From assembly GCF_018350175.1 (NCBI RefSeq), contig NC_058368.1:10230001-10294000 (forward strand): DNA of 64,000 nt, read 5' to 3'. Position numbers and translations under genes: made by a program. Source of the DNA: Felis catus (Eukaryota). The notes beneath the pieces are model-generated. The model was not told the DNA's origin. It did not search any database and saw nothing but the letters and a program-made list of their open reading frames with translations. Numbering within the stretch: position 1 is the stretch's first letter; every line of letters begins with the position of its first letter. Positions 7,543 to 63,018 of this stretch are shown in pieces.

Positions 7543-7588
7543 TTACGAGGACTCTGACAAGTGCCCGATTCTCTACGGCGACGATCAG
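7543..7588 (+). pseudogene. WD40 gene exon 1 in window (YEDSDKCPILYGDDQ)
   Basis: tctctgcttcAG acceptor, CAG|gtaggt donor, 46 nt; phase 0 exit fits the next exon starting GCVNIL. Confidence 0.8.
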
Positions 7589-7789
7589 GTAGGTGTGGAG
7601 GGTGGAAGGAGGGCAGGAGACACTTAATCGGAGGCCGGAAAACCGTCTGCCTTTCTCTCGGGGAGAAGCGAGGGGTGGGGGAAAGGAGGGTGGGAGCATC
7701 TCTGTCTCGAGGCCGAGACAAAACGAAGAGGAAAACAGACGAGGAGACCCAGCCGTATGTCGAATAAATAAAATACTAAGAGGTAACAT

Positions 7790-8000
7790 ATATGAAGTGC
7801 TCACTTACATGCCTGGGGTTGTCCTCAGGGCTTTGCACCAGATCCGATCAGTTCATGCTGCGGTTGCCGTTTGTGAGAATGGAGCAACTGAGGCACAAAG
7901 CGGTGGTGCAGCTTTCAAGCGTACCTGCTCCCGGCAGGTGACAGGCTGGGATTCGAACCCACTCAGTGTGAACCAAGTCTGTGCATTTAACCCCTATGCT
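7790..8000 (-). mobile_element. MIR SINE
   Basis: gtgctcacttacatgcctgg...aactgaggcacaaag...gctgggattcgaaccca. Confidence 0.7.
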
Positions 8001-8600
8001 TTACTGACTCTCGTGTAAAACAGAAGGGATGTTCCAGGTAATGGTGTGAAGAAACACCACTGGGATGGAGTAGTCGCTCTGAAAGCATCGCTGTCGGAGC
8101 GCAGGGGGACAGTGGCACATCTGGTTTGCCTCCCGTTGGGCACCGGGAATCTTGCTAATCAGGGGCCCGGAGGGAGGATGCCCTTCTGTGTGTTTTGTTT
8201 GACAATCAGAGATAGGGTTTGAACGCAGATTCCCGTGGGAGAGGAGACAGAGTGCTGTAAACACAGCTAGGTCGAAGGGTCCAGTATCCCAGGATCTTTC
8301 TGAAGAAGTGTTAGCAAGGGCCAGGGGACCACCACCAGGGCTTTAGGTCCTGAACGGAACCGAGCAAGCCGGAGAGAGGAAGCAGGCAGATGGGACCATC
8401 ACGGACACCGAAATCCAAGAGCTCCCAATTTCTCATTGTGCCCAGGAGTTGCCTTACTCTCGACTATCCCCTAACGCCTTTTAATGCTGTTTTTTTCAAA
8501 ACCGAGGAGCGAGTGAGAGAGCAGACGGGCCCTGGTGCGGAGACCTCCAGCCCACAGGCCCCCACGTGGCGGGAGCGGGGAATGATCTGCGCGCTGCTCA

Positions 8601-8615
8601 CCTGTAGGGGGCGCC
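8601..8615 (+). promoter_or_regulatory. CTCF motif
   Basis: CCTGTAGGGGGCGCC matches CCnsyAGrkGGCrs. Confidence 0.55.
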
Positions 8616-9154
8616 ATTCACACGGACTAGGAGGTGAATGGTGTGCCTGGATTTATGCTGCACGGCCTCTCCCGGGCCTGACATTCCTCAAAGGGACGCG
8701 GACACCGGGACGGAGTGCAAGAGGGAAGCACCCCACCCCCATCCCCACCCCCACCCCCACCCCCGGCCGCGGGGTCAGTCGTGCCCCTGTGGTCCCGAGC
8801 CCCAGGCGCCTGGTAAATCGGGCTCCGTGGCTCTCCCTGTCTCCTTGCTGCAGTCCTGGGTGCGGTCCAGCCCCGCGCCTGTGGCGACGGTCCAGCAGAA
8901 GCCAGGAAGGCGAAGCCGGGGCCGATCCGGGCGACACTGCCTGTTCATTAGAATGCAGGTTCATTGGCAAAAATGCAAATGATTCATTTCACTTCATCCT
9001 TCTGACAGACTGTGCTGGTAGCAATAGCTGGCTGCTTCCCTACACCTGTCACTGCCGCGGCGCTGCTCACTTTGTGTAAAAGGCCTGCCACACTTCAGGT
9101 GTATATATAGCAACCAACCCGCGGCGCAGCCCGCCTGCGGGAAACTCGATCATT

Positions 9155-9172
9155 CACTGCCCCCTAGTGGAC
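9155..9172 (-). promoter_or_regulatory. CTCF motif
   Basis: Minus strand reads GTCCACTAGGGGGCAGTG, a near-consensus CTCF core. Confidence 0.7.
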
Positions 9173-12100
9173 TAGACGCGAATGAGCCAATTCGCGGCGG
9201 TCCTTCGAGCTTCTCTGCAAATCAGAGTTGCATTTTATGGCAGGAAGAGTTTGCCGGAGTCTGTTGATTTCGTCGCTGTCGCTGCTGGTGGCTCAGGGTC
9301 TTAATTAACAGCACTCTAATAAGATAAAATGTCAGTCGTGGAGGACTCTTCGTGGAGCTATATTTGAATGTTAGAAAGCCACGACGTTTTCAAAAAATGT
9401 TTGAGTCCTCGTTTGATGTTTATTTAAAAAAAAAAATCAAATTTTCTTTAGGCTACAAAAAAGGCTTACAGTGAATGTAGCATTAAAGAGTTCGTGCTGT
9501 CATCCAGCAAAGCCATCAGTTGTACCTGAGAGAGAAGGGCGGTTATTATAAAGCGGAAGCACGGGCCTGACGTTTCACCCAACCACCCCTGGAGGTCACC
9601 TACTGAGGACCTAGCGTTGAGGACCCAGTCACACTCAGCGTAAGGGAAGCCACCTTTGCAATCTGCTGACAAAGGCAAGGGGAAGCTTGGTTCGCTAACG
9701 TCATATTACCAAGTCTCTGTTGATTATCCTTGGACTTCTTTCAATTGTTGCATCTAGCCCAGGCTTATGGCTTAAGGATCATTTGATAAGATTCATCAAT
9801 GTTATTTGCATGCAGCAAGTTAAGAAACCTGTTTCTTAAAATTAATAATCTACTTTTATACCCTTTCTGAGCTGTTTCCTCATTGCAAGGACTTGAACAG
9901 CCTTGTAATTATCTCTGAGTTCAGTGACTTCATTGCTCTGAACTTTTGGCATACCTACTACTGGAATATTCGAGATACTAGAATAACTCCCTTTCCATAG
10001 CCCGGACTCTTGCCATAAAGACCTCCATTGGTATAGTCTAGGCCAACCATGCCCAAGTGCATCCTTGTGTATGGATTAGCTTCTCACTTACGCATCTAGA
10101 GTGATGTTGGTTGGAGAATGGGAAAAAAAAAAAATTGTCCCACAAAGCATTTGCTGTACTTTGTGGTACAGATGAGGAAACCGGGCTCAAACGGTTACAA
10201 AAGAAGTAGCATCTGGGTGAGACGGGCAGAGGGATAACGCTAGACCCTCCTGTAGGACAGCCTTGTTCACTTGACTCGTTTATTTCAGGCTGACTGTAGG
10301 GTCAACACGGCCCTGACGATCGGAAACTTCCAAGAGAGAAAAATGTTGGTGAGAAAGCTTTGGTGGATGGGCACAGGGCAGGACTCAAATTTTTCCACCC
10401 CGTGCAGCTCAGAAACAGCAGGAAGTGAAACGTTTCGGAGTGCTTCCTCGGCAAACTGTAGTTTTCCTCAGAATGTCACAGAAAGCGCTGCTGGTGATTC
10501 ACCAGGTTAAACTTTTCCTCCTGAGTCAGAAGCAAGAGGAAGCTGCTGTCGAGGGTGGAGGCCCAGCGGCTTGGGGCGGAGGGGAGGCGGGGTGGGGAGG
10601 CTTGTTGACTAACTGGTCAGAACATTCTAGCCAGGAAACTCGAATAGCTTGCTAAGGAACACAGGGAAATGAAACCCTCACTGTGGAAACTTTCAATGCA
10701 ATAATAAAAATTAAATAGGCTTGTGGTATAACTTACCAGAGAGAAATAGGTTAGTGGAGCTGCCTTCCTGTAGGTCCCCATTCCAGCCCAATGAAGTTCG
10801 ATGCTTGCCTATTAAAGTTGGGCACACTGCCCATCAAGTGGCCCCATTTTACCCGACCTGCTTTACATCAGTCAGTCAACGCATGTCATAGACCCAGAGG
10901 CCCCAGGACTGAGTGGTCATCTGGTCTACCCCTTGGCCTCCCCAGCCAATATCCCTGATATCGTCTCTAAAGAAATGCTTGAGTCAGGATTGAATTAAGT
11001 GTCAGAGGCAGAGAGAAAGGGAAGCAGAGTGGGGTCATGGGGCCAAGCTAAGAATATTCTTCCGGCGGCCTTGGGAATTTTACAACCGAACCAGAAGAAT
11101 CCAGATGAACCGCGTGTGAAAGGACTTTCAAGTGCACATAAAGGAAACGCACACAGAACGCGACCAATATTTCTGCTTCCTAGGCTTTGTCGCTTCGTCC
11201 TGTTAGGGTCACCTGGCTGCGTGTCCCCGGTAGGCAGGCGGGCGAGGTGAGGCTCCCAGCGGGCCATCCTTCAGCCGAGAAGCTGGCTTTTCCTGAGGCT
11301 TCGGCACGCCGGGCTGCCCCGTCCTCCCCAGCTGGTCTCCGGCCAAGCTGCCTCCCCAGCCAGGCCGAGCGGGGTTTCTGTGGGGGTTCTGAGCTGCCGG
11401 GGCTGCGGCCGCGGACGGCTGGTGCAGGGGCGATAACCTGGCCTTTCCTGCTTCAGTCTAGACAGATGCATGATTGAATAAAGGATTCATCCAAGCCCTG
11501 TGTCACATTGGCCATCTGGAAAGTAGCCAACCACTCATTTAGCAAATTGCTCTGTTTAAATGCAGCTGCTGTGTCTCAGCGTTTATGCTACCAAGACAGA
11601 TCGCGTGATTCCTCTGCCTTCATTTATCTAAGCCGTTCCTCTCAATCTGCCAGGAACTTAAAAAGGCTGTTAATGCATGACAAGGCACTTGACCCACATG
11701 ATTTCCAAACTGAGAAGGAGCATCCGTCTTGTGCTGGGTCGTCCTTTCCTCAAAAGCAAGGGCACCTTGTCTATGCTCCCGCTCTTAATGAAAGCTGCCT
11801 TTATTAAGAATCCCATTAGGCTCCGCAGCGCCCAGCTCTCCAACACTGTAAATATTACCCTTTAGAAACGGGTCCAGAGGCCCTGCGCGGGCAGCTGGCC
11901 GGGTGGTGGGTGCTCTAAGCGACAGTCGGGGGCTGACCTCAGACCTCAGATCTCTGGACTGAGGGTGCCGTATGGCAGCCCGGTTGCCTCTCTCCATTTG
12001 GAAAGATGGATTACAGTCGTTAGCAGATAATGTCAACAAAGCCTCCGAGATGATTTGATAAGACTCAGAAGCAAAATGATTGCAGACCAGTCACGAGCTC

Positions 12101-13849
12101 TCAGGGTTTTTACCTTGGTTTCCTTTATCTTTTTCCTAAAGGAAATGGTAAAAAAAACAAAACAAAAAAACAAAAAAAAAACACCCCTTTTTTCACCTTT
12201 TTTTAGGTGAAGCAGTTTATTGTAGGATGTCACTGGTCACTTTGGCCTGGTACTGATTATGATCTGTTATTTATCAGGCAAATAATCCTGATATGACCAC
12301 TGGCTTCATCAACTGCTTAACTTAATTGGGGTCACGGTATCATTAAGTCTGGAAGCCAGAAGCCAGAATAAGGGAGTGTTAATTAAATTAAATATCATCT
12401 GCTCAGCCCTCAGCTAGGCCCGTTGGAAGACCAACGAAATAGTATAATAAATGATCTTTGCGGGGACCAAAAGAAACAAACACAGGAGTATTCAGCACAG
12501 TGCAATTGTGAAGGTGCGAGCTTGGGGTCCCAGCAGGCGCAAAGAAGCTGCTGAGAGGGACGAGGTACCCGCAGGAGGCGAGGGAGGGGGAATGTCCAAG
12601 AGGAAAGAGCTGATTAGCAGCTGAACATCCAGGGAGATCGAGGAAGATGAGAGACGGGGAAAATTCCATTTAATTTATTAGAAACGGAAACAGTGGTGAG
12701 AAAACTGTAAGCGGAGGAACAGGGAGACAGATTGCAGGGCTCTAAGGGGGGGGGTGCGGAGACAGAAAATGACATATTAACTGGCGAAATGTGGAGAGAG
12801 GGGAACAGCATACGGTGGCTTCTTGAAATAAGATGAGGTTCTGAACGGTACTGTAATTGCATGGAAAGTGACAGAACCCAAGGACGCGGATGTAATTCTC
12901 ATTAATAGATTTTGCACTGGGAAAATATTACATAAGACCCACGTCACAGAATTTTGGGTGGATGTCACAGAAAGGCTAAAAGAACAGCACAGTGGTTGAC
13001 CAGAGATTAATTCTCGAGATTTGGAGCCAGGCTGAGCAAAAAATGACATTACCTACCGCGCACTCCACATAATGCGAACCCGACGAAGACCGTAGCCGGT
13101 TCCACGGCTGAGTCTCCTGAGCTCGGAGACCGCACAAAATGTAGCGGTCTATGCTACATATACCAGGCATATACCAGTGCCTATGCTACCTAGGACCTCT
13201 GGTCCCCTAAGTATGCCATTCGACCTCTTTCTGCCTCAGTCTATATAATGAAATAATCAAAGCGCCTACCCCGCGGGATTGTCATGAGGATGGAATGAGA
13301 GAACGCGTGCCAAGCAGGTAGTGTGGCACTGGCTACTTATTGGAGATTTCCCGAGTCCCACTGTACTGGAAAATACCGTAGCAAGCTCCCATCGACAAAC
13401 TAGCAGCATTTAGTGCACACCCCAGAGGGCACCTTTTGCTACTGTCCCCGCCTGCTATTGTGCCGGTGATTTCCGCTGTATCAACTGCAGTTCCAAGTAC
13501 GGGTCACTATGAGACACGTCCTGGAATGACCGGGGTCCCCTGCTTGCAGTCACACACCACAGGGAGCTCCCCCTGTGACCTAGGTCCGGGCATGTGGACA
13601 GTGCGGTCTGACCGAGCTCATGTCCCATTTCAAGGTGGTGGCAGCTCCACCTGCTAAGCAGAAAGGCCCATCTGCTCTGAGAGAAACAGAAAAGCCTGGA
13701 AAACTATCTGCTCCCTTTTAACTGGAAAAAACATTGCTTGTTGTTTCTGCCAAGAGTGCACAAGCTATTAGAGGCTGGGAAATACATGGAATGTGTTGGC
13801 TTTTCTGAAGGGGATTTATTTTTCTTTTCTGTTTAAAACCGTGTTGCAG

Positions 13850-13896
13850 GGATGTGTGAACATTCTGTCTTTGGCTTCCGTAGGTGAACGATGAAG
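13850..13896 (+). pseudogene. Exon 2 (GCVNILSLASVGER*R) with in-frame TGA
   Basis: gtgttgcAG acceptor, AG|gtaaat donor, 47 nt; TGA at 13892-13894. Confidence 0.8.
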
Positions 13897-15409
13897 GTAA
13901 ATATTGAAGTTTTAAATCTAATTTCAAAAGAAGGGAGTAATACATTTTTAAGCAAGGACGTAGCCTCTTTACGTAACGATTGCCATGGGGTAAAATAATA
14001 ATGTTCTCAAGACAGCTTAGGGGTTGAACTAGCTTTTTCTTCTCCTCTCCCGCCCCCTGACAGACTCATTTTCCCATTCCAACCCTCCCCTGGAGTGGCT
14101 ACAATACCACTATGGACCTCCAAAGTTGGGATGTTTGTTCCTTCACTCGAGAAATGTTTTCTGAGGGCATGTCCCGCCATTCTGCCTGGTTCAGGGCAGA
14201 GAGCAGGGAAACCAAAACTCATCACAGACAAAGTCACTCTGAACATGTCAACGAAACATACAATGTCCAGACCTCTGTGTCCAAGCGGCAAATTAAGGAA
14301 GGTAGTTGGGTGGACGGTCACGCAGGAGGATTTGGGGACCGCGCCTGGAAGTGCTATGGGTCATTTCTGCCCATATTCCAGAAGTCAGAAGTCGGTCACA
14401 TAGTCAGCTTAATTGCAGCGGCAGCTGGGACAGGTGAACAAGTCATCAGGAGGGAAGTGCCTACAGCGAACGACGAGCCAGTCTTTACCACCAATATTGA
14501 AAAAAAAAAAAAGCACCCAAACCCAACACATCCTGGGTCTCCCGTGACATACGATCCGTGACATATGATCTGGTGGCGTGGCATCCCCATCCCTCCCGGG
14601 GAATTCCCTCTTCCTCTCCCCTCTCCCATCTACCCCTTCTTTCCATTCCTCTCTGCCCGGCCTGCTGAATCCGTGTCCCCACAGGCTCCAGGGTGGGCCA
14701 TCTTCAGAACCCTGCCTTCCTCTGCATCTTGGCTTACAAACTGCACATTTGGAATGTGCCCTCCCGTCTGTCCTGGCTTGTCAAATTCCTCTCCCACCTC
14801 CAGTGTTTGGGTCCAACCCTGTGTCTTCCACAGTCTGCCTGGTCGCCGCACACAGCCCTCCTGTAATATTCATGGTCTGCACCGCCCCTGGGGCTTTCTC
14901 ACTCACCACCTGGTGGTGAGGCTTTACAGCGATGCCTCGTCTTTCAGTAGAATGGATGCTGTTAGGGAGGACAGCACCTGTCACCTAGAGGCGGTAGCTG
15001 GGGAAGGAGACTGAGGTCATGGCGATGCCGGCCCGCAGCTCTGTCCGTGTGCTCCCTGCAGTGTGGCTGTCGCCAGATGCTTACCTCGGCTCCCATGTCC
15101 TCACTCATAACCTGAAGACGGCAATACCTACCCCCCCGCCCCACTTCCCTCCCAGAGGGGCTTTGAGATCTGAATGAGGTGATTCATGTGTATCCAGAAG
15201 GAGGACAAGGAAGATCATTCACCGGGCTCATCTGACTGAGAGGCAACATAGGAGGGTGCCCTGGGGACGGGGCTCAGGTGGTGTCTCAGCACCTGCCAAG
15301 GGGCAGACAAAGCCCTCGTGTGTCAGCTGGGTAAAGAGGTGAAGGAGTGGCCACCTGTGGTGCTTCTTGGAAACCGGAGAAGTTTTATCTAAAGTGAACG
15401 GGAGGGCGG

Positions 15410-27619: not shown

Positions 27620-27737
27620 AACTTGGAAGAAACTGCCCAAAATTGAAAACATGCCAAACATTAGCATTAAAAATGCTGTGGCCTCTCCAAATGTGAACTA
27701 TATCTGCTGGAAAGTGCATGGAGACTGGATTACTCAG
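27620..27737 (+). pseudogene. Exon 3 (TWKKLPKIENMPNISIKNAVASPNVNYICWKVHGDWITQ)
   Basis: tttccttAG acceptor, CAG|gtaaaa donor, 118 nt, open frame with WD-type H-x-D-W motif. Confidence 0.88.
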
Positions 27738-30526: not shown

Positions 30527-30596
30527 CTGAACTACTACGATCCTATCAAAGCCGTCATTTCAAGCTCCAACCACGAGCCTACAGCTCTAGTAATAG
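30527..30596 (+). pseudogene. Exon 4 (LNYYDPIKAVISSSNHEPTALVIG)
   Basis: tttccAG acceptor after a (TC)22 tract, G|gtactg donor, 70 nt, phases match neighbours. Confidence 0.85.
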
Positions 30597-38455: not shown

Positions 38456-38702
38456 GTCGTACTATGGGAACAACAAATGTCAAGCAAAAGATGAAAGGAT
38501 AAGGGATGTTAGAAAAGAGGTTGAGGCAAGAAGACACCAAGCGTTCCTTGGTTTGCCCCAAAGGTGAGCAGAATGGGATCAAACCGTTTTTCGCATCTAC
38601 AGAGGAGTCAAGGCATTTTCATTCTGTAAATGAAAGAATGAACTTGCTGCTGACAGGTGGGATGGATCGAATCATTCGAGTCTGGAATCCTTATCTGCCT
38701 GG
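38456..38702 (+). pseudogene. Exon 5 (GRTMGTTNVKQKMK / DVRKEVEARRHQAFLGLPQR*AEWDQTVFRIYRGVKAFSFCK / RMNLLLTGGMDRIIRVWNPYLPG) with two frameshifts and stops
   Basis: tttttAG acceptor, GG|gtgagt donor; TAA 38500, TGA 38565, apparent TGAA insertion at 38631-38634. Confidence 0.9.
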
Positions 38703-38934: not shown

Positions 38935-38985
<51 letters not shown>

Positions 38986-40236: not shown

Positions 40237-40342
40237 AAAACCAACAGGTACGCTGAAAAGCCACACAGCTCCAGTGATCGACATCCATGCATCTGCTGAG
40301 GATAACGAAATATCTTCCAGGTCCTCGGACAACACTATTAAG
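40237..40342 (+). pseudogene. Exon 6 (KPTGTLKSHTAPVIDIHASAEDNEISSRSSDNTIK)
   Basis: ttcattctAG acceptor, AAG|gtcttt donor, 106 nt; WD repeat SH...D-N-T-I-K. Confidence 0.88.
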
Positions 40343-40925: not shown

Positions 40926-40927
40926 GA

Positions 40928-40990
<63 letters not shown>
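40926..40990. repeat. (GAAA)16 microsatellite
   Basis: Perfect array read directly. Confidence 0.97.
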
Positions 40991-44254: not shown

Positions 44255-44955
44255 TGCTTTGGAGAAATACAGACTTGAGTTTAAACTCTGAAACTACCAG
44301 AAACTCAGTGACCTTGGGTGAAGGATTCAATCTTGCTAAACTCTTGGACATTGGTCACTCTTAATTCTCTTGGTCATTGGTCACTCTTAATTCTCTTGGA
44401 CATTGGTCACTCTTAATTCTCTTGGTCATTGGTCACTCTTAATTCTCTTGGTCATTGGTCACTCTTAATTCTCTTGGACTTTGGTCACTCTTAATTCTCT
44501 TGGTCATTGGTCACTCTCAATTCTCTTGGACATTGGTCACTCTTAATTCTCTTGGTCATTGGTCACTCTCAATTCTCTTGGACATTGGTCACTCTTAATT
44601 CTCTTGGTCATTGGTCACTCTTAATTCTCTTGGACTTTGGTCACTCTTAATTCTCTTGGACTTTGGTCACTCTTAATTCTCTTGGTCATTGGTCACTCTT
44701 AATTCTCTTGGTCATTGGTCACTCTTAATTCTCTTGGACTTTGGTCACTCTTAATTCTCTTGGACTTTGGTCACTCTTAATTCTCTTGGTCATTGGTCAC
44801 TCTTAATTCTCTTGGTCATTGGTCACTCTTAATTCTCTTGGACTTTGGTCACTCTTAATTCTCTTGGACTTTGGTCACTCTTCTGCAAAATGACCCACCT
44901 GGTAGGTTAGTTGTGCTCATAAAAGATAAGGTATGAACTGTGCTCACCACAAAGT
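44255..44955 (+). mobile_element. MIR SINE split by a minisatellite
   Basis: 5' part acagacttgagtttaaa...gtgaccttggg; 3' part tctgcaaaatg...cccacctggtaggttagttgtg. Confidence 0.6.
44341..44882. repeat. 26-bp minisatellite, about 21 units (CTCTTGG[AC/TC][A/T]TTGGTCACTCTTAATT)
   Basis: Read directly: 20 full units plus a 22-bp partial unit; three main variants. Confidence 0.98.
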
Positions 44956-47552: not shown

Positions 47553-47704
47553 AAATGGGATCTGGAAACAGACAGCCGCTTGTTTACGGCCTCCTCCAAA
47601 GCCAGTGGTATCCAGGGGGAGGGCGTGGCCTGCCTCTATCTCCCCCACCCCAGAGCCCTGCATGTGGCCACCGACACGATTGCACCCCTGCACCTGCGAC
47701 TCAG
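47553..47704 (+). pseudogene. Exon 7 (KWDLETDSRLFTASSKASGIQGEGVACLYLPHPRALHVATDTIAPLHLRLR)
   Basis: Long pyrimidine tract plus AG, AG|gtatga donor, 152 nt; completes the TIK-xWD repeat end. Confidence 0.88.
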
Positions 47705-49977
47705 GTATGAGGTTACCCTCTTGGCCCCAAGCCGTCAGCTGTCTAGAGGGCACGGCGAGCCCAGTGCAGCTGCCTGCAACCTTTTATATCACGATCCACA
47801 GTTAAGGCCTCTGGGTGACCTCCTCAGCTCTATGCCCCACGTCCTTACCTTGCACTATGTGTTTGGTGAGCTCCCTTTAACAGCTCCCATTAATCACTCC
47901 AGCACCACCTCCCTATGTTATCCAGAAGTCTGGAATTTACCTCTCGAGCCCTTATCGACCCACTGGCTCTATGTCTATAGGAAATTGTCCAGGAAGCCCT
48001 GGAGGCCCACATCTGAGACCCCATCCCTACAGCAGGGTAGCCATTCAGTCCCAGGTGATGAGACGGGTCCTTGTGGAGGGTCCCCTAGCAGGCTTCTCCT
48101 GCCCAGGGCCCTTAAATGCCTTGAAGACTTGTCTCCCTGATTCCTCTACAAATGAGGCTGCCTCGGTTGCCTCGGCACCCCTTTGCCAGGCCACCTGTCA
48201 TTTCCTCCTCGGAATGACATTTCCTCCTCGGCCAGGAAAGTGGGTGCCGGCTGCCCTTTCCACGGTCAGGGAGGTCACTCACACAATCCTCCCCTTAGCG
48301 CCGAATGTCCCCTCCAGGGCCCGCCCCTGGCCTGCCTAGGCTGAGACTGCCTGGTCTTCCTGAAGAGTTTAAGTCCCGCCTCCCGGAGACCCACGAGGCA
48401 CCTAGCACAAGGCTGCAGTTTTACAGATGAGCGACGCAGGCCGGGAGAAGGGAATGAATTGGGAGTCTGGAGCAGACCTGGGGCTAGACCGCCTCTCCAG
48501 ATGCCTGGCACCCGGCCTCCTCCCTGTGTGGTGCTCCTCCCACTGCAAGGGCAAAAGTCTGTCTGAGATTTCGAAGGGGAAGGAGAGCTCAGTGCTTATT
48601 ACTATTTTTTAAGTAGACAATGGGAAGCACATTGTCTAGTCTTCCTTCTCCAGAGCCCGCAGGGAGGCTTCTCTCAGATGCTCCTAAGAGGCACGTGTCG
48701 GGGGTAAAGAGCTTCCCTGGGCCCAGTTGTCTCGAGGTAGATCAGACCTCTTCCCCGGGCTCAGCAGGGCTGGCCAGGCTCACTGCCGGTGCTTTGAGAA
48801 GTGACGGGCCCTCGGAACGTCATTAGAGCCTTCTCGTGGTTCCAACCTGGCCCCTGGCTATTCCCCCCACCCCACCATCCCTCATTCTCTGCCTGCAGTT
48901 TCCCTCTCGGTGTTCAGCAAGATTCCGAATCCCAAATCTGCCTTTGAAAACCAAGGAAAGGAGGCAGGGAAGGTTTAGGCTGGCTACCGCGGTTTGTAGG
49001 TGTCACATCCCCTCTATATGAAAATGGCAAATGGATTTCCTGAGCCAAAAATGATGGCATACGGTCTCGAAAAGTGTTCTGTTTTTTTGATTTGTGAACA
49101 TATGTCTGGGAAGAACCTTTATTGTGTTCAGTGACTAAACCACAGATCAAGAATTAACTCTACAGAAAAGCCATCAGATTTCACAGCACCAAAACTCTAC
49201 TGAAAAGTCCAGCGTGTATGGCCGCTGCCCGTGTCTGTAGCCACCCTTCCTAATTTGCCACCCTGAGGCCACGGGGAAGTCTCCCGTGGATCCAGAGCAC
49301 CTGGCAGAACTCCCACCCGGTCATCGTCATAGCCAGGCCTGGGAGAGCAGGCGCTTTGCTCAAGATGTCAGAGCAACTGGCTGAAAAGAGGGACTTCCGT
49401 CAATCAGGCGGCTGTTTGTTCTACATGGTATCAGTGTGTAGAAAAACAGCCTGTTGGATTTTTTTTTTAAGCGAAGAGACTGAAATTCCACCTCGTGGCA
49501 AAAACAGACTCAGTCTCTAGCGCCAACACTTAGGTGCCAGATAATGTCTGCCGGTCCCTGCTCTGTCGCTTGGGAGCTTTGTGATCTTGATCAAGTGACC
49601 TGGTCCTTCTCAGCCTTCTGGTGGTTCCACCTGCGAAGCGGGGAGACTCAGCGCCTTCCACCCCGCGTTGGGGAAGGGATGTAGGTAAAGCCAGTAGGCT
49701 CTAGCTACAGGCCCGGCGCTTTCTCCCTGGGACTGTGCCCCACACACCCTTCCCTCCTCCTCCCCACCAGGCAAGACTCTGCCATCACAGGAGTCGAGAG
49801 ACCATTCATGGGAAAGTGCAAATCGTCCTTCTGTCAAATGTTATTTTTCCTTGGAAAGGATTCCACACACTGGGAATAGTCTGGCACTAAGTTGGAGGTT
49901 TCAGACCCACTGAACGTCTTCTAGTGGCCCAGCCTTGGAACCCGGGCATTGGAGGGACAATCAAGAGAGAAGGCAGA

Positions 49978-51380
49978 TGGCACAAAAACAGACACATAGA
50001 CCAATGGAATAGAATAGAAACCCCAGAACTAGACCCACAAACGTATGGCCAACTCATCTTTGACAAAGCAGGAAAGAACATCCAATGGAAAAAAGACAGT
50101 CTCTTTAACAAATGGTGCTGGGAGAACTGGACAGCAACATGCAGAAGATTGAAACTAGACCACTTTCTCACACCATTCACAAAAATAAACTCAAAATGGA
50201 TAAAGGACCTGAATGTGAGACAGGAAACCATCAAAACCTTAGAGGAGAAAGCAGGAAAAGACCTCTCTGACCTCAGCCGTAGCAATCTCTTACTCGACAC
50301 ATCCCCAAAGGCAAGGGAATTAAAAGCAAAAGTGAATTACTGGGACCTTATGAAGATAAAAAGCTTCTGCACAGCAAAGGAAACAACCAACAAAACTAAA
50401 AGGCAACCAACGGAATGGGAAAAGATATTTGCAAATGACATATCGGACAAAGGGCTAGTATCCAAAATCTATAAAGAGCTCACCAAACTCCACACCCGAA
50501 AAACAAATAACCCAGTGAAGAAATGGGCAGAAAACATGAATAGACACTTCTCTAAAGAAGACATCCGGATGGCCAACAGGCACATGAAAAGATGTTCAAC
50601 GTCGCTCCTTATCAGGGAAATACAAATCAAAACCACACTCAGATATCACCTCATGCCAGTCAGAGTGGCCAAAATGAACAAATCAGGAGACTATAGATGC
50701 TGGAGAGGATGTGGAGAAACAGGAACCCTCTTGCACTATTGGTGGGAATGCAAATTGGTGCAGCCACCCTGGAAAGCAGTGTGGAGGTTCCTCAGAAAAT
50801 TAAAAATAGACCTACCCTATGACCCAGCAATAGCACTGCTAGGAATTTATCCAAGGGATACAGGAGTACTGATGCATAGGGGCATTTGTACCCCAATGTT
50901 CATAGCAGCACTCTCAACAATAGCCAAATTGTGGAAAGAGCCTAAATGTCCATCAACTGATGAATGGATAAAGAAATTGTGGTTTATATACACAATGGAA
51001 TACTACGTGGCAATGAGAAAAAATGAAATATGGCCTTTTGTAGCAACGTGGATGGAACTGGAGAGTGTGATGCTAAGTGAAATAAGCCATACAGAGAAAG
51101 ACAGATACCATATGGTTTCACTCTTATGTGGATCCTGAGAAACTTAACAGAAACCCATGGGGGAGGGGAAGGGGAAAAAAAAAAAAAGAGGTTGGAGTGG
51201 GAGAGAGCCAAAGCATAAGAGACTGTTAAAAACTGAGAACAAACTGAGGGTTGATGGGGGGTGGGAGGGAGGGGAGGGTGGGTGATGGGTATTGAGGAGG
51301 GCACCTTTTGGGATGAGCACTGGGTGTTGTATGGAAACCAATTTGACAATAAATTTCATATATTAAAAAAAAAAAAAGAG
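49978..51380 (+). mobile_element. Young 5'-truncated LINE-1 (carnivore/felid type): ORF2 C-terminus, 3' UTR and poly(A)
   Basis: Uninterrupted frame 49978-51138 ([12 protein letters not shown]...[18 protein letters not shown]...[11 protein letters not shown]), G-rich 3' UTR, AATAAA, A-tail, 14-bp TSD AGAGAGAAGGCAGA at 49964-49977 and 51381-51394. Confidence 0.97.
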
Positions 51381-51520: not shown

Positions 51521-51565
<45 letters not shown>

Positions 51566-51688: not shown

Positions 51689-52367
51689 CACTCTTCACTA
51701 AATTTCTACAAAGGATTCCAGATTCCACTTTACCGACGAGGACATTAGTGCTAAACAGTTGGACTGCTTAACCCCTACAAGTGTCTGTTCTATGTGCTGT
51801 TGTCCCAGAGGTAGCTCACGGGGCAAGGCTGGAGGACACAGGTAAGCCCTTGGCCCCTGGTTGCCCATGGGAAGCACACCGCAGGGCCTTGTCCCTGCTT
51901 GAATGAAAGGTGCTGCTATTCAGGCTTGAAGATTCAGAACGGGATAATACAGTTTGTATTTATTTGCAGGGGGGGGGGGAAGTTGTATATTAATAGCAAA
52001 GAAGGTCCACTCCATAGTTAAATGAAATCACATTCCTCCTGCCCCAGGGAGGAGACATGTGGTGTCAGTTTTCATGATTAGTGGCTGCTGCTCATTGAAT
52101 ACCAATTATGCCATGTGAGGGTCTTTGGGAAGGACATTTTTATGAATCTTCTCATCTAATTCTCAAAACAGCCCTTTAAAGTAGATGCCATTATCCCCAT
52201 TTAAGAGATAAGAAAGAGTTTTGAGCAGTTAAACAACGTGTCCAAGGTCACAGACCCATTTCTATCCTCTTAACCTTTCTCCATAAGGCAATAGATGCCC
52301 CATCCTGGGTATCCGTGTCCTACACTTGGTTCAGGTTCTCATCCTCTCTCTGTTTTTCATGAGTAAC

Positions 52368-52470
52368 GTCTCCCCTGGAGCCTTCCCTGGTGGTTTCCCA
52401 CCAAGAGCCCGCGGTGTGCTACCGCTACAACCGGGCCTTCAGGCAAGTGGTCAGCTGCACGGAAGCATCT
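52368..52470 (+). pseudogene. Exon 8 (SPLEPSLVVSHQEPAVCYRYNRAFRQVVSCTEAS); in-phase acceptor reads AC
   Basis: Strong donor TCT|gtaagt and WD-type SH motif; 5' boundary inferred from phase and preceded by AC (52366-52367) instead of AG. Confidence 0.82.
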
Positions 52471-54717: not shown

Positions 54718-54941
54718 TTTTTATATATATATATATTTTTTTTTTAAGTTTTATTTATTTATTTTAAGAGTGAGAGAGAAAGCAGGAGGGCCAGAGAGAG
54801 AGGAAGAGGGAGAATCCCAAGCCGGCTCTGCACTGTCAGCACAGAGCCCGACACAGGCCTCTATCCCATGAACCGTGAGATCATGACTTGAGCCGAAATC
54901 AAGAGTTGGATGCTTAACCAACTGGGCCTCCCAGGCATCCC
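54718..54941 (-). mobile_element. Can-SINE
   Basis: Ends ccaggcatccc; TSD tagactttt...gattct. Confidence 0.95.
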
Positions 54942-56012: not shown

Positions 56013-56416
56013 TGTTATGGGATGAATTTTGTTTCCCGGATATTCCTATGTTGAAGGCCCAATCCCAGCAGCTCAGAATGCGACTGCATGCGGAGATAGA
56101 GCCTTTAAAGAGGGGATTAAGTTAAAATGAGGATATTAGGGTGGGTCCTGAGCCAATCTGACTGGTGTCCGTATAACAAGAGAAAATTTGGACACATAAG
56201 GAAACCCTGGGTGTGCATACACAGGGGAAAGACCATATGAGGACACAATGAGAAGGTGGCCATTTGCAAGCCAGGAAGAGACGCCTCAAAAGAAACCAAA
56301 CCTGCAAACAATTTGATCTTGGACTTCCAGCCCCAAGAGCTGTGAGAAACTAAATGTCTATTGTTTAATCCCCCTGTTCTGTGGTATTTTATAATATAGC
56401 CCAGCAAATGAATGCA
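56013..56416 (+). mobile_element. MaLR solo LTR (MLT1B-like)
   Basis: TG...CA termini; tgttatgggatgaatt...ttggacttccagcc...ctgtgagaaactaaatgtctattgtttaa. Confidence 0.88.
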
Positions 56417-56568
56417 CCAAGATAAGCCAACTTGTATTGGAAGTAAAGATACCTTCAGGGTAAGTTTTCATCTTACATATCTGTGGCACTAGACTTCTGA
56501 ATGCAAATTCCCTTTAATTTGATAGCCAGTATCTCAAGGTCACTTTTTTTTTCAACTTCCGGATACAG

Positions 56569-56673
56569 GTGGTAAAAGTATGGGACTTTGAAACAGGAAG
56601 GCTCTTTCTGGATTTACTGGGGCTCATGGCAATGCTGGAATCACATTCTGACCTTTGACTCCAGTGGAAGAAG
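56569..56673 (+). pseudogene. Exon 9 (VVKVWDFETGRLFL / FTGAHGNAGIT / LTFDSSGRR) with two apparent 1-bp deletions
   Basis: ggatacAG acceptor, AG|gtatgt donor; 105 nt is incompatible with phase 0 entry and phase 2 exit. Confidence 0.88.
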
Positions 56674-56753
56674 GTATGTGTCTTCTCTAGTAGCTTCAGC
56701 CATTAGGCGGTGAGCTCCCTGAAATGATTTCCTAACAGAAGACTGTTTCCTAG

Positions 56754-56833
56754 GCTAGTCACTGGGGGCAGAGACGGCTGTCTGAAGATATGGAGCTACA
56801 ACAACGGACATCGTCTGCACACACTGAAACATG
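56754..56833 (+). pseudogene. Exon 10 (LVTGGRDGCLKIWSYNNGHRLHTLKH), GC donor
   Basis: tttcctAG acceptor after an 80-nt intron; classic WD motif; G|gcaagt donor. Confidence 0.9.
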
Positions 56834-57707
56834 GCAAGTTGCTTCCTACCAAGGCTCCCCATAACATAATGATGCAAGATTGGGCATTTGTTGTCAAGGT
56901 AGAAGAAACAAATGAGAATGGGATCTAGGGTGCACGTGACAATCCTACATTCTTTTTCTCTGGCCCTTCATTTTACCAATGACTTTAAACTTCTACTGAG
57001 GAGAGACGTACTTTACATGAATGTATGTGCTCCCAGCTAAGCCTTGTGCACCTGCTCCTTCATCACCCGGTATGTTTATCTGCGTTCTTAAAAGAGCTTA
57101 GCTTTTCTAAACATTTTAAACATCACATAAGTCAAAATATGGATGAGCAAACTAAAAGCTAGTCTGTTTTGTGTGTTAGTGATTTTTTTTTCCAAGGCCA
57201 CTTTTCCACTTGTTCATGTGCTGTACCTGATTTTGGTCGAATTTCCACAGTTCTGGCCTGTTGACTTTCCATGAGGAAGATAAGAGGCAAAAACTTTTCA
57301 ACTACCAGAGAATATAAAAGAATCCAAAGTAAAAAAAAGACAAAAATCACTCAAAGTAATGAGTTTGTGATTCCAAGTTCTGCTTCTGACCTGCCTGTGT
57401 TCACTTGTCTCCTCACTCAGGAGGAGCCGGGCACCGTGTAGGGTCCTGTCAGGAGAAGGCGAGCTTCTTCCCAAAGCTGAGCAAGGGCAGAACCAGCATT
57501 TTAGGGCAATGCGGGGGCGGGTGGGGGGAGGGGGTGCAGGAAACCAGCAGGGCTTTGGTGGTTTGAAAGACACCTAACTGTGGTCTGAAAACTAGAAAGT
57601 ATGCAAGTTTTCCCCAATAATCATTGAATTGAGACAACATGTGTAAACTGATTTAAGGACTAATAAAGAAGAATGTCTAATAGAAGGTGACAATGTTATC
57701 TTTCTAG

Positions 57708-57762
57708 ATGAAAAGCAAAGTGAAGTCTGTGATTGTACCTACTTGGAGGTGAACCAAAATAA
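57708..57762 (+). pseudogene. Exon 11 (DEKQSEVCDCTYLEVNQNK)
   Basis: tctttctAG acceptor, AA|gtaagt donor, 55 nt, phases match. Confidence 0.85.
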
Positions 57763-58429
57763 GTAAGTTATATTCAGCTTGGATGTAAGAGGGGGATGCA
57801 TCTTTTTGATACAAAATCTATGCTGGAGGAGGACACCAAGACAATGAAGGGAATTTTCCAGAAGGAAATATGTCAAAGCATTCCCGAAGACCCTGGTTGC
57901 TCCCTGATAGTAATTTAGGCAACTAGGCTCTTCTAGAATATTGGAAGCAATTCTCTGCACATTTTGATGACTATTTAGAGGTAGAGATAGGGAGCACTGC
58001 ATCTCTCCACCAAATGCTTTCTTGAAGAATAAATCACAGACTAGATTACCAGAGTAATTAAATTCAGCAGCCACAAGGCCAAGAATAAAAATCCAATAAA
58101 TTCTCTCCTGAACACAAAAAGAGTGAAAACAATTCCCGATTGGTTTCTGTTTGTGCCCTTGCCTCCGTGTTTCAACCGATCTCTTAGGATCACTTAACCT
58201 TCAGAAGGGCAACTGCTCCTGGAGTAGCATCCATAGACCTCGGAAATTATAGATCCCTTAAGTAGCAGTGAAAACGCTGACCCTAATTTATCAAATCACA
58301 TTTTATCTTGCTGTCTCCATTTATCATATAGACATGGCAAAATTAAGCCACAGTATTGATTGCTTGCAAAATGTAAAGAGATGATAAGCTCAAGTATTGA
58401 GATGTACTACTACTCTGTTACTGTTCTAG

Positions 58430-58475
58430 GTGCATCATAGCTGTTGGATGGGACAGAAGAATAAATGTGTATTTT
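58430..58475 (+). pseudogene. Exon 12 (CIIAVGWDRRINVYF)
   Basis: tgttctAG acceptor, TTT|gtaagt donor, 46 nt. Confidence 0.88.
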
Positions 58476-58717
58476 GTAAGTGAAATGTACAAAATGAGCT
58501 ATTCAAAACCCTGCTTCAGATTGCTATCCTCTCCCCACCAACCCTACCCTTGATTCTTTTCACACTAAAATCAGTTTGTAGTAGTTCTTTAGACTTCTGC
58601 TCTCTCTACAAGTTAAGCCATGATAGAGACAGAAGAATTTCCTCCCTCCCTCTCTTCCTCCCTTTTAGAAACCTTTTTTACTTTGGTTTTTGTTTCTGTT
58701 TCTTCCCTCTAGTTTTC

Positions 58718-58923
58718 TTTTTTTTTAAGTTTATTTATTTATTTTTAAGATAGAGAGAGAGAGACATAGTGGGGCAGGGGCAGAGAAAGAGGAGCACAAA
58801 GGATCTGAAGCACGCTCTGTACTGACATCAGAAAGCCCGATGTGGGGCTCCAACTCATGAATCATGAGATCATGACCTGAACCGAAAGCAGACGCTTAAC
58901 TGACTGAGCCACCCAGGCACCCC
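58718..58923 (-). mobile_element. Can-SINE
   Basis: Ends ccacccaggcacccc; diverged TSD tctag(t/c)t(t/c)tcttt. Confidence 0.95.
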
Positions 58924-58949
58924 TCTAGCTCTCTTTTATGGGAGGAAGT

Positions 58950-59244
58950 ATAATGACTCTTCACCTAACTCTGGGAGGGCGCTGGTTCCCACATCAACAA
59001 TCAATTCTCTGACACAGCTGGTGTCCTACAATTCAGCTCAATCCTGGCCCATCTACCCGGGGATAGCATCAGATCCACAGGTTACAGGCTCAGTCCCACA
59101 AGCCCGGTCTTCGTGCCCCCCCCCAACTTCAGACACCTCCCATGCTCTCAGCACTTAGGGAATTCCAAGGGTTTTAGGAGCTATCTGCCAGAAGTGGGGA
59201 CAGAGACCAAATACCTATTTCTTATCGTAAGTCGCAGTATCACG
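58950..59244 (-). mobile_element. MER21-like LTR, internally deleted
   Basis: cagctggtgtcctacaattca...agatagcatcagatccacagg...ctcagtcccacaag and aattccaagggttttaggagct...gaccaaata motifs. Confidence 0.7.
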
Positions 59245-60168
59245 AAGTGTTAGCTAGAAGAGCTATCAGAGGCACAGAGGGCATCCCTGGGAATTCAAGC
59301 AGACCGTGTCTGGAACGTGGAGCTCTACACAGTTTACCTTGTATTCTTACCCCTCGTACCCGGGCTGTCATGCTCCCTCCTCCCCGGCACGCTGGGGCGT
59401 CAGCATATCTCGCATATCCTTGCCTCTAAGTGAGGGCTAACCACTCTGTCAATTGTCCAACCCTTACTTTATCCCTTCTTCCTTCCACCTTGTCTTTATG
59501 CCCTGCTCCCTCTGTAAGTGGGAAGAGGAGATGAAATGCCATCTATAAGCATCTCTGGGGGGAAAAAGTATTTTTTTATTGCTTAGAGATGGAGAAAGGA
59601 TTCAGGGACAGGAGAAGTTGAAAATGCTGACTGAAACTAAGTTTTAAATCTACCTGTGACATTTTATTTCCCCTGCTCACTATGCTGGATGGTCATGGAT
59701 TTCTGAAGGTCTTTAAACATTGTAAGTTCTTTATTCGTTTGAAGGCGAGCCGTATTTCACAGCCTAAGCCTTGCATCCCCAGATGATTTGAGAGATGACT
59801 ACCTGAGAAGCTCTGGTGTTGAATCCATCCTTTGGTATTATAGGTTCCTGAGCTGACGGCTTTTGTTTTAACACATGCAGTGGCTATGGCTTCTTATTAT
59901 GAAGGCAAAGCTATGCAGACCATCCAAGGAGAGTTTGTCAGTTGACATATGATTTGTTGAAATGCAATCACCCAAACGTCAGAAGTGGATTGCTTTTTAT
60001 TCCCACTAGCACTAGAGGAATTTGCTTTGACATTTCGAAAAACTGCATCACTGGTGGGGTGAGGGGTAGGGTTATAAAATGTGCCAACACCTTCTCTCTG
60101 AAGTTGTGAGTGTGTTGGCAGCTCATTTTACTGCTTATACAACGTCTCTTCCTTGGCTTTGCATACAG

Positions 60169-60228
60169 GATGCACCATGTGACTTTCATCACTTCTGGAA
60201 GCCGCGGCCACACTGGCAGGATGACCTG
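60169..60228 (+). pseudogene. Exon 13 (DAPCDFHHFWKPRPHWQDDL)
   Basis: gcatacAG acceptor, CTG|gtgagc donor, 60 nt, phase 0-0. Confidence 0.85.
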
Positions 60229-61335
60229 GTGAGCCCTGGTCCACACTGTCTGGCTCTCAACCCAAACAGTGGCACATGTCGAGGATATCTGTCACTCAGA
60301 GGCTCACCCTGACTCTCCTGGGCCTGCCTAGGGTTGTCACAAGGACCTCAAAAGCCTCTGCTGTGGCAGGAATCATGACTGGGGTCCAGGTAGAGCCAGA
60401 AGTGCTGGGCTCCAGGCAGCTGCTTCCCCTCCAGGAAGAGTGATGGCCTTGTGTTCAGATTGGGGCATGGGGCTACAGAAGCCAATCCATGCAGCTCTCC
60501 ATGAGCTCAGCCAGGATTCATGTAGTACAGGAATGGCAGCCCAAGATGTGGTGGGTGTGACTTTCCTCAAAGAAGCATGTACTTCCTGTTTCTGCTTGGC
60601 ATGCAAAATTGTATGCATTTGCTGTGTCACCTTTGGGCAGCCAGGGAGCCGAAGAGATGACATTCCTGCCCTGTGGCTTGTTGGGGGCCCATAACCAGGA
60701 GACTTCTTGTGATTCTTATTAGCAAAGTGCCCCAACTTTCTGCAGCCTCCTATGGTTGAATGACCTCCCTCAAAATTGTCTGGATGCCAAGCCAATAAGA
60801 CAAGTGCTAAGAAAGCAAAGTCACTGTGCCCAACCGTGTGCTACAGCTCAACCCTACCTTAAACCCCCATAACCATTCCAAAAGGTACAAGTCACTAGAA
60901 TACAAACTCCATGAGGCCAGGCCTTGTCTGCCTTCACCATGGTATTCCCAGGACCTAGCCCAGTGCCCACTTTATAGCAATGCCTAATTAATTTGATTCC
61001 ATTCAACTAGCATATGCCAAGTACAGATTGTGGACCAAGTGTGCTTTGTTCACTGAAGATGAAGTTATGATCAAAAGGGTCATCTCATGATCTCTGCCTT
61101 CCCGGAGTTTGCAGATTAGTGATTATTGAGTGAAAGAACAAAGTTGTGCAGAAAATGCCTGGAAGTGAAGGCCATTGCAAGGAGGCATTGTCAGGCAAGT
61201 CAGTGAAGTGTTAGTGCATTCAAATATTTATTTATTCAACTATTAACTCACTCAACACGTATTTTTGGGCACTTTTATAGTGTCATGCTTAATGGATAGG
61301 CCCAGGAGATACAATGTGAATAAAATGTGATTCCT

Positions 61336-61549
61336 GGGGTGCCTGGGTGGCCCAGTCGGTTGAGCATCCGACTTCGGCGCAGGTCATGATCTCACGGTTC
61401 GTGGGTTCGAGCCCCACGTCGATCTCTGTGCTGACAGCTCAGAGCCTGGAGCCTGCTTCGGATTCTGTGTCTCCCTCTCTCTCTGCCCCTCCCCTGTTCA
61501 TGCTCTGTCTCTCAAGGATAAATAAACGTTGAAAAATATTTTTAAAAAA
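61336..61549 (+). mobile_element. Can-SINE
   Basis: ggggtgcctgggtggcccagtcgg head; TSD aa(t/c)gtgattc(c/t)t. Confidence 0.96.
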
Positions 61550-62851
61550 CAACGTGATTCTTGGCCCAGAATCTCACAGCCTGGTGAGGAGATAAACTAT
61601 GGAAATAATAATCATGCAATGTGACAAATGATATAACGTAAAAGATGTGGAGAAGCCTAGAGGTGGGAACTACTAACTTTGCTCTAACATCACACAGGAG
61701 ATCGAAAGATTACTAGGATTTTCCCAGGAGGCCGAGGTGAAGAAAGCAATGTAGATGATGGGAAGGGGTAAGCATGAAAGCATGAGCCAAGTCGGGAAGC
61801 ATGCATGAAAAGCATGTTGTCTGGAGGGCTATGAAAAGTTTGAGGGGCTGGGGCATCAGACACAGGAGGGAAATGAGGTTGAAAAGTTAGAGCTTGACAG
61901 TCATGCTAAGGCATATGTACACTTCATGGTGTGGGCAGTGGGGGATCACAGGAGGAGGAGGATCCCAGACATACATGGTCAGAAGTCACAGAAGGAGACA
62001 GGATTTGGCAGAAGATTGTGGGAAAGAGAGAGCCATTGACCTTCTCTTTTCCAACTGTCTTATGCCACCACCTTCCCAGCCACTTTCAGGCAGAAGGGAC
62101 ATCTTAGATGACATGGACAGGTCCCCAGGGGACACTCTGTGGAAAGTATGTGAGAGCAAGGGAGAAATGATGCCTCTACAGCACCAGGAGAAGCCAAGTC
62201 TCTTCACATGGAAACTGTACCCCAATGAGGATGTTGAGGGACTGTGGCCGGGAGCTCTTTAAGCTCTCTGCAGCACTGCCCTCAAAAAACTCCATTTTGG
62301 TTTCTCATCTTTCTTAAGGATCCATATCCAAATCCTCCTTTCGAGGAGAGTAGGTGATCTAAATTCCTAACTGCATGTGTAAGCCGCAGATGGGAGCCCT
62401 GTAGGAATCAAGTCAAGGGACAGCACACTCTGGAACTTAGAACTGAGCTGTTGGGAAGCCAAATCACCTTGGCCCAGAGCTGGTTTCCATTATCCCATTG
62501 CCATCACCATTTCAGCCCCAAACAGGGCTCCCTGCAAACACTCCATTTGTCAGCTGTGTGGGGAGGTCAGGAAGCTGCTAGGATTATCACTTCCCTGGGG
62601 AAGGTAGTAGAACTGACCCAAGGAGAGGCAGCACCTCTCTGGCTGACCTGTACACAGACTCCTGCCTGGAAGGATGCCCTGATCCTTGGGGCTGGGTCAT
62701 GAGGTTCTAGGTGAGTCTCCATCGTGGGCAAGCACAGGAGGAGGAACCCGTCTGCATCCTCTGTCTTAGGGATCAGAGGAAGGAGAACTATCTATGGGTG
62801 ATTGGGAATTTGATTTCTTACCCTGTCCCTCTCCATCTCTCTCCTTCTCAG

Positions 62852-63018
62852 AACCATGGGCACAAAGAGGACATCCTCTGTGTGGCTCAATGCCCACCTT
62901 TTCTTCTCATGACTTCCAGTTACGACGGAGAGGTCATCATTTGGAACGCCATCTCAGGCCACATTTACTGCAAGCTGAACACTCCCAGCCCCTCTCATGG
63001 TTGCAGAAGAAAGAAAAG
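62852..63018 (+). pseudogene. Exon 14 (NHGHKEDILCVAQCPPFLLMTSSYDGEVIIWNAISGHIYCKLNTPSPSHG...)
   Basis: Long pyrimidine tract plus AG, AG|gtaggt donor; complete GH...WN WD40 repeat. Confidence 0.9.

Follow-up and report, generated by a model that had tools for sequence, protein, structure and literature searches.

The cat orthologue of mouse Wdr95 is a unitary pseudogene, probably inactivated on the felid stem

Wdr95 belongs to the FAP337/CFAP337 family, which includes WDR49, WDR64, EFCAB8 and WDY and combines an EF-hand region with WD40 beta-propellers. Here, we describe the Wdr95 orthologue of Felis catus, part of which lies in a stretch of 64,000 nucleotides (nt) of assembly GCF_018350175.1 (contig NC_058368.1, C1:10230001-10294000, plus strand; hereafter the window). 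Coordinates without the prefix C1 are positions in the window, and negative numbers lie upstream of its start. In Chlamydomonas, the EF-hand and WD-repeat protein FAP337 disappears along with FAP57, and the two proteins keep a subset of inner dynein arms stable; a table in the same paper links FAP337 to WDR95 of zebrafish, to human WDR49 and EFCAB8, and to WDY of Drosophila (PMC6761771). In Tetrahymena, CFAP337 is a protein with two WD40 propellers that binds CCDC96 and contacts dynein d (PMC10504270). In mammalian sperm, WDR64 binds atop CCDC96/113, and WDR49 was proposed for the same place in other cilia (PMC11779644). From these papers, a site on the axonemal doublet, on CCDC96/CCDC113 near CFAP57 and the inner-arm dyneins, is known for members of the family, and by analogy Wdr95 may dock there as well. 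The closest solved chain to the spotted hyena orthologue of Wdr95 was that of WDR64 (9fqr_No, E 1.2e-35).

The mouse Wdr95 gene is enriched in male reproductive organs, and males carrying a 25.3-kb deletion of it were fertile: testis histology and sperm morphology were normal, as was the litter size of 10.2 +/- 1.5 (PMC13253961). The authors state that Wdr95 has no human orthologue, and they describe PIWI-interacting RNA (piRNA) clusters within the mouse introns, which they spared from the deletion. In a human genome-wide association study, a table gives WDR95P and HSPH1 as neighbours at human 13q12.3 (PMC7890067).

We consider it very probable that the window carries exons 10-23 of the felid orthologue of Wdr95, and that this gene is a unitary pseudogene which was lost on the felid stem, a loss tolerated through redundancy. 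The ancestral Wdr95 would have stood at an intron-bearing locus between TEX26-like exons and an HSP70-family gene. Its inactivation would have occurred on the felid stem, and lesions would have accumulated since then along approximately 127 kb. The loss may have been tolerated through redundancy with paralogues at the same axonemal site, which fits the normal fertility of the Wdr95-knockout mice and the independent human loss.

The exons were mapped by tblastn of the spotted hyena (P0114) and panda (P0130) orthologues against a 144-kb locus consisting of the window, 50 kb upstream and 30 kb downstream. Exon edges were set by a coordinate check of the flanking dinucleotides, with every exon read in three frames. 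The whole gene consisted of 30 exon blocks over 126.7 kb (C1:10186460-10313129, or window -43540 to 83129). Exons 10-23 were present in the window as 14 collinear blocks on the plus strand (7543-63018), with a total length of 1402 nt or 467.3 codons. Per-exon E-values reached 1e-24 with the hyena and panda queries, excluding a chance match. The exon phases were consistent across all 30 blocks once indels were allowed for, indicating that the ancestral exon-intron structure has been kept and that the locus is no retrocopy. Along the whole gene, 28/29 acceptors were AG and 26/29 donors were GT. Within the window, 26 of the 28 splice dinucleotides were canonical, the exceptions being an AC acceptor (52366-52367) and a GC donor (56834-56835).

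Lesions were called by a purpose-written, frameshift-aware protein-to-DNA dynamic programming, in which the spliced exon chain was aligned to the panda and hyena proteins. The two references yielded identical lesion lists. The read-through translation was identical to panda in 868/1029 aligned codons and to hyena in 811/954 (84-85%). The whole-gene tally amounted to at least 19 lesions: six stops, nine frameshifting indels, one deletion of 35 codons and three broken splice sites. All six stops are substitutions.

In the window, exon 10 (7543-7588, 46 nt) was free of lesions, had an ag acceptor and a gt donor, and aligned to the panda and hyena sequence 'CYEDPDKC..YGD'. The first disabling change was an in-frame TGA (13892-13894) in exon 11 (13850-13896, 47 nt), where panda (L341) and hyena (L265) have Leu. 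Exon 12 (27620-27737, 118 nt) and exon 13 (30527-30596, 70 nt) contained no lesion. Exon 14 (38456-38702, 247 nt) displayed three, namely a 1-nt deletion at 38497-38498, a TGA at 38565-38567 replacing an Arg of the references, and a 4-nt insertion at 38631-38634. An alternative parse of the last of these, with a TGA at 38631-38633 followed within a few bases by a 4-nt insertion, has an equal event count; the alignment program picked the single insertion. Exon 15 (40237-40342, 106 nt), encoding one WD40 repeat, and exon 16 (47553-47704, 152 nt) kept their frames intact, while exon 17 (52368-52470, 103 nt) had lost its acceptor (AC for AG at 52366-52367, plus strand). Exon 18 (56569-56673) measured 105 nt instead of the expected 107, with two 1-nt deletions at 56602-56603 and 56646-56647. 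Exon 19 (56754-56833, 80 nt) encodes one WD40 repeat and is followed by the GC donor. The next three exons were lesion-free (exon 20, 57708-57762, 55 nt; exon 21, 58430-58475, 46 nt; exon 22, 60169-60228, 60 nt). Exon 23 (62852-63018), also encoding one WD40 repeat, measured 167 nt against 166 expected, with a 1-nt insertion at 63002 near its end that shifts it out of phase with exon 24.

The GC donor of exon 19 lies in an otherwise strong consensus, and a Lynx pardinus model splices there, while a tiger model reads through. The donor may still be functional and was not counted among the 19 lesions. A selenocysteine reading of the TGA codons was considered and rejected: the corresponding residues of the references are Leu, Trp or Arg and never Cys, and frameshifts lie alongside.

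Upstream of the window, exon 1 had a TGA at -43498. Exon 2 carried a 2-nt deletion (-33540), a TAG (-33500), a frameshifting expanded poly-C run (-33473 to -33455, about C1:10196527-10196545) and a 1-nt deletion (-33364); the run comprised approximately 20 C where the orthologues show a short Pro/Ala stretch. Through the 35-codon deletion, exon 6 now continues directly into the nine final codons of exon 7 (fused stretch at C1:10213574-10213699, -16426..-16301), and exon 8 contained a TGG to TGA stop at -15228. A three-frame search between exons 6 and 8 recovered only the retained 'LKLKRRKRV' end of exon 7, and tblastn across the 144-kb locus gave nothing further of the missing codons. The exon 6/7 junction is in frame and lies at a short repeated CTG(CAG) motif, with the 35 codons and any intron between them gone, a configuration that suggests a microhomology deletion. 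Downstream of the window, a TGA stop was present at 70503 and a tandem duplication of 7 nt at about 71941, followed by an AT donor of exon 25 (71984-71985) and a damaged donor of exon 30, the last being either TA or a GT displaced by one base with a phase change.

Many orthologue models begin at a Met in exon 14, which starts their short isoforms. The short isoform would be equally dead in the cat, because 11 of the lesions lie downstream of this Met. Neither the long isoform nor the short isoform starting in exon 14 is predicted to be translatable in the cat. It could be argued that a short protein of about 125 residues with only the EF-hand region is still made from exon 3 to the exon 8 stop, since no stop or frameshift falls in exons 3-5 or in the first part of exon 6. 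However, translation from the usual starts (exon 1, or the hyena start in exon 2) runs into a stop or frameshifts, the exon 8 stop lies more than 20 exon junctions before the 3' end and by textbook rules would expose the transcript to nonsense-mediated decay, and no such felid protein model occurs among the 98 database matches described below. We regard the persistence of such a protein as extremely unlikely.

The identity of the gene was analyzed by protein searches, gene phylogeny and neighbouring genes. The exon at 62852-63019 (56 codons) matched 98 vertebrate proteins at E <= 0.001 (99 candidates), with names such as WDR49-like, WD40 repeat domain 95, CFAP337-like and WD-repeat-protein-on-Y-like. 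Its best match was a 'hypothetical predicted protein' of Lynx pardinus (P0001, 98%), and a tiger Ensembl model (P0007) also scored high. The 90% cluster of match P0034 includes the Mus musculus 'WD40 repeat domain 95' (E9PUB4, D3Z7A8, NP_083716; 1099-aa isoform P0099). In the cat genome, 15/22 matches of mouse P0099 fell at C1:10.20-10.31 Mb with 39-86% identity, and the remaining 7/22 were distributed on four other contigs with 24-42%. Similarly, 21/30 matches of the ferret orthologue (P0124) fell at C1:10186430-10313120, and nine on other contigs with 25-44%. Cat and mouse Wdr95 were reciprocal best matches. The exon DNA was present once in the 2.43-Gb, 71-contig cat genome. No second copy of Wdr95 was found by the exon DNA search of the cat genome or by the mouse and ferret protein searches, which used a stricter first pass and elsewhere returned distant paralogues only.

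A maximum likelihood gene tree (quick search, 15 rows, 987 columns) mirrored the species tree. The three felids (100) were sister to hyena and meerkat (98), followed by panda and ferret (98); the rodents, including mouse Wdr95, branched at the expected position, and supports by the Shimodaira-Hasegawa-like approximate likelihood ratio test (SH-aLRT) ranged from 91 to 100, and from 97 to 100 among the carnivores. The Lynx and tiger rows contain out-of-frame stretches that BLAST masking failed to strip, and their inflated end branches of 0.086 and 0.17 are unusable.

The hamster model P0063 is a TEX26-Wdr95 fusion, whose TEX26 part mapped to C1:10151736-10167474 (plus strand), 19 kb upstream of exon 1. 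This TEX26-like region consisted of four exon matches with 56-70% identity to the hamster model, with a TAG inside one match. About 29 kb downstream of the last exon, a multi-exon gene of the HSP70 family, a candidate HSPH1, was located at C1:10341800-10346741 (minus strand). These neighbours correspond to the expected TEX26 / HSPH1 order. Judged from sequence, the cat locus is the orthologue of mouse Wdr95 at its ancestral, intron-bearing site and is neither a retrocopy nor a paralogue, since reciprocal best matches, a species-like gene tree, conserved neighbours, kept introns and a single copy were all found.

WD40 repeats (PF00400) were detected in the hyena (E 5.5e-35) and mouse (7.9e-39) orthologues, and in alignment the cat exons were 84-85% identical to the corresponding stretches. 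The EF-hand family PF13499 was annotated for at least 12/98 matches, all of them non-mammals among the matches listed. It was not among the 25 families listed for the hyena or mouse orthologue, and cat exons 4-6 align to the corresponding region.

A first-pass annotation, made from the letters of the window, had proposed a WDR95-like gene of 14 exons at 7543-63018 with about 467 codons, consistent phases and 26 of 28 canonical splice dinucleotides; tblastn and the exon coordinates gave the same ends, the same total and the same splice count. Its seven lesions were all recovered against panda and hyena, the AC acceptor being seen directly. Its assignment to WDR95 agrees with the reciprocal best match to mouse and the gene tree, and its view of an original locus rather than a retrocopy is borne out by the 30 intron-split blocks and by the flanking TEX26-like exons and HSP70-family gene, the synteny it had asked about. 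The situation that it named as fatal, a best hit to another paralogue with an intact WDR95 elsewhere, was not found in the cat genome. Its description of a 14-exon gene was too narrow, as the full gene comprises 30 blocks spread across about 127 kb, of which exons 10-23 fall in the window, and extends far past both window ends; the insertion at 63002 had also escaped it. Thus, a dead Wdr95 orthologue at its ancestral locus stands, and the proposed gene extent does not, nor does its claim of a fairly recent loss, which is discussed next.

Long gene models without a quality flag were available for other carnivores, namely spotted hyena (P0114, 1020 aa), meerkat (P0004/P0122, 851/853 aa), panda (P0130, 1074 aa) and ferret (P0124, 1082 aa). 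Felid proteins among the 98 matches were limited to one Lynx cluster (one member) and one tiger cluster (two members), and none came from RefSeq cat annotations. The Lynx model P0001 begins in the out-of-frame reading of the cat upstream of the 4-nt insertion in exon 14 ('..HFHSVNERMNLLLTGG'), follows the shifted frame past the first deletion in exon 18 ('GRLFLDLPGLMA') and carries the shifted reading '..SHGCRRKKR' of exon 23, as in the cat insertion at 63002. It also reads through two donors, giving 'LTPISWT' at the AT donor of exon 25 and 'QWYAFCNGR' at that of exon 30. Around the lost acceptor of exon 17 it uses an odd donor-acceptor pair, and the tiger model also avoids the normal junction. 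As read from this model, Lynx has the same DNA changes as the cat, or equivalents, at five lesions.

The tiger models P0113 and P0007 jump from 'TEAS' into the second exon 18 frame of the cat, and they skip the stop after the second exon 18 deletion, the shifted end of exon 23, and exon 25. These patches look like the behaviour of an aligner around frameshifts, which is consistent with shared lesions, if indirectly. Only two of the nine lesions judgeable in Lynx were private to the cat, the TGA at 70503 (Lynx Q, tiger R) and the 7-nt duplication at 71941; going by the same models, both are later changes on the cat's own line.

Sites invariant in at least eight of the other ten species were compared as well. 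The cat differed at 22/307 of these sites, hyena at 12/298, meerkat at 9/295, panda and ferret each at 4/290, and mouse at 16/302. Of the cat's changes, 13/17 were common to Lynx and 10/16 to tiger, suggesting that the relaxation began before the living cats split. The lesions shared with Lynx and the patched tiger models indicate that the loss itself predates the living cats and is not recent. The gene was probably inactivated on the stem of the cat family, with lesions accumulating since. With divergence dates taken as general background, two private against five to six shared lesions would roughly make the loss several times older than the split between Felis and Lynx. Within Carnivora, the gene models indicate that the loss is specific to the cat family and independent of human WDR95P, because hyena, meerkat, panda and ferret keep long unflagged models. 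An independent loss in cats had also been proposed in the first-pass annotation, and the carnivore models, together with the listing of WDR95P as a human pseudogene in PMC7890067, agree with it.

The first-pass annotation had further argued from the 26 canonical splice dinucleotides in the window that the loss was fairly recent, and the cat's own end branch in the gene tree is indeed short (0.021). A loss at the level of the species or genus is nevertheless very improbable in our judgement, in view of the shifted frames and read-through common to Lynx, the patched tiger models, the shared changes at invariant sites, and the finding that only two of the nine lesions judgeable in Lynx are private to the cat. 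An assumed neutral divergence of 3-5% per site predicts 1.6 to 2.7 altered splice dinucleotides of 28, and 1 to 2 were seen. The splice sites would therefore fit neutral decay at a level of a few per cent for each site and make no case for recency.

The surviving splice sites along the whole gene might also be explained if the dead coding gene persisted as a spliced testis long non-coding RNA or piRNA precursor, which would add to the pseudogene reading rather than replace it. The piRNA clusters in the mouse Wdr95 introns (PMC13253961) would fit such a role. On the other side, an Rfam scan of the window gave no matches, neutral decay would leave about as many splice sites, and the RNA-labelled sequencing runs containing the stretch at 56400-63100 (shares 0.12-0.74) were mostly metatranscriptomes with mainly intron words and are uninformative on expression. 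Overall, we consider a surviving transcript of this kind unlikely.

Finally, Wdr95 might be intact in the species, if the lesions are errors of the assembly or null alleles that only the sequenced animal carries. Here, and for the felid-stem pseudogene in general, several points weigh against our interpretation. The cat lesions were read from the sequence of one assembly, and one of the frameshifts lies in the long poly-C run of exon 2, a type of run that is often wrong in assemblies. A word search of sequencing runs identified 14 DNA-type runs from nine studies that contain 0.98 of 701 sampled words of 56400-63100, a stretch with three frameshifts, but this share ties no word to a lesion, and seven of the 14 runs may derive from the source sample. 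Both whole-genome protein searches used a stricter first pass, so that weak matches may be missing; an intact second copy would not be a weak match and should not be hidden by it. The evidence from Lynx and tiger consists of predicted proteins only, an indirect reading of DNA, from which the state of the TGA codons at 13892 and 38565 in the window is unreadable. Likewise, for hyena, meerkat, panda and ferret the word 'intact' describes an unflagged predicted model rather than a tested protein. The summed protein branch lengths from the feliform node (cat 0.089, hyena 0.077, meerkat 0.141) showed no clear felid speed-up, and the invariant-site changes of mouse indicate that the gene is fast-evolving in general.

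Assembly errors or private alleles would have to account for 19 independent lesions. Substitutions to stop, of which there are six, are rarely invented by assemblies. Five of the lesions are mirrored in the Lynx pardinus model, which comes from a separate assembly of another species, and the near-complete word content of the 14 runs and the restriction of felid proteins among the matches to one Lynx and one tiger cluster point the same way. The probability that the gene is intact in the cat is in our view minimal, and we retain a unitary pseudogene of probable felid-stem age.

Some features of the introns and of the orthologue models were also recorded. A 415-codon open frame at 49891-51135 (plus strand), in the intron between exons 16 and 17, is the 3' part of ORF2 (the second open reading frame) of a LINE-1 (L1; long interspersed nuclear element) and matched residues 885-1273 of human L1 ORF2p (E 8e-168), with no Pfam match; given its long open frame, it suggests a fairly young, 5'-truncated L1 insertion. 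The window has 42 stop-to-stop frames with 130 codons or more, and a Pfam scan of 12 of them, drawn from the longest, gave no family. The intron between exons 15 and 16 harbors a tandem array at 44341-44882 (26-base unit, 20.8 copies, 95% matches), and simple repeats were located at 38939-38982 ((AG)22), 40926-40990 ((GAAA)16) and 51524-51562 ((GA)19.5). Among the 98 orthologue models, eight bear the NCBI label 'LOW QUALITY PROTEIN' (P0009, P0020, P0021, P0024, P0030, P0048, P0057 and P0061), and their species are African wild dog, fallow deer, white-tailed deer, California sea lion, pilot whale, horse, white-beaked dolphin and porcupine. The identity to panda was 77.5-79.2% for canid models, 88.0-89.3% for ferret, mink, European mink and badger, and 67.2% for stoat.

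From the gene models, Wdr95 may be decaying in other lineages too. In a wider reading, which we put forward tentatively and rather doubt in its full extent, mammals would be losing Wdr95 repeatedly as WDR64 and WDR49 cover its docking site on the doublet of the sperm tail, the cats would stand next to humans as an old and clear-cut example, the LOW QUALITY models would represent further independent decays, and the felid locus might still yield a spliced testis transcript feeding piRNA production, like the introns of the mouse gene.

The felid gene is an ordinary lineage-specific unitary pseudogene, an old loss of a gene that is dispensable in mouse and dead in humans. It adds a lineage-wide felid loss within a family tuning the inner-arm dyneins of sperm tails and cilia, and, taken with the fertility of the knockout mice and the pseudogene in humans, it supports Wdr95 as a dispensable paralogue; it raises no new question. 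Loss screens based on the human gene set are blind to it, because humans have no WDR95 gene. For annotators, it is a reason to regard the odd 'proteins' predicted at this locus in Lynx and tiger as artefacts. The loss could conceivably be connected with the poor sperm morphology seen in many cats, but this has no support, because knockout mice have normal sperm. In the literature, no WDR95 paper was on cats by title and none paired 'unitary pseudogene' with 'Felidae', although the supplements of gene-loss screens were left unsearched and may list Wdr95.

Compared with known systems, the cat locus is closest to mouse Wdr95 (LOC381693, RIKEN 4930434E21; E9PUB4/D3Z7A8), an orthologue with the same exon chain and TEX26 upstream. 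Unlike the cat copy with its at least 19 lesions, the mouse gene is coding, enriched in male reproductive organs and dispensable for male fertility (PMC13253961). Human WDR95P (13q12.3, beside HSPH1 in the table of PMC7890067) is a pseudogene of the same gene, and the cat locus likewise has an HSP70-family neighbour. The human loss was independent, given the long open models of carnivores outside the cat family. WDR64 and WDR49 share the family and domain plan, and WDR64 (9fqr) gave the best solved match, but they are distant paralogues, and other loci of the cat genome match Wdr95 orthologues at only 24-44%. FAP337, CFAP337 and WDY are the founding members of the family, related to the cat locus by family as given in the tables of the papers. 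In contrast to the felid Wdr95, these proteins are functional in the axonemes of protists and flies.

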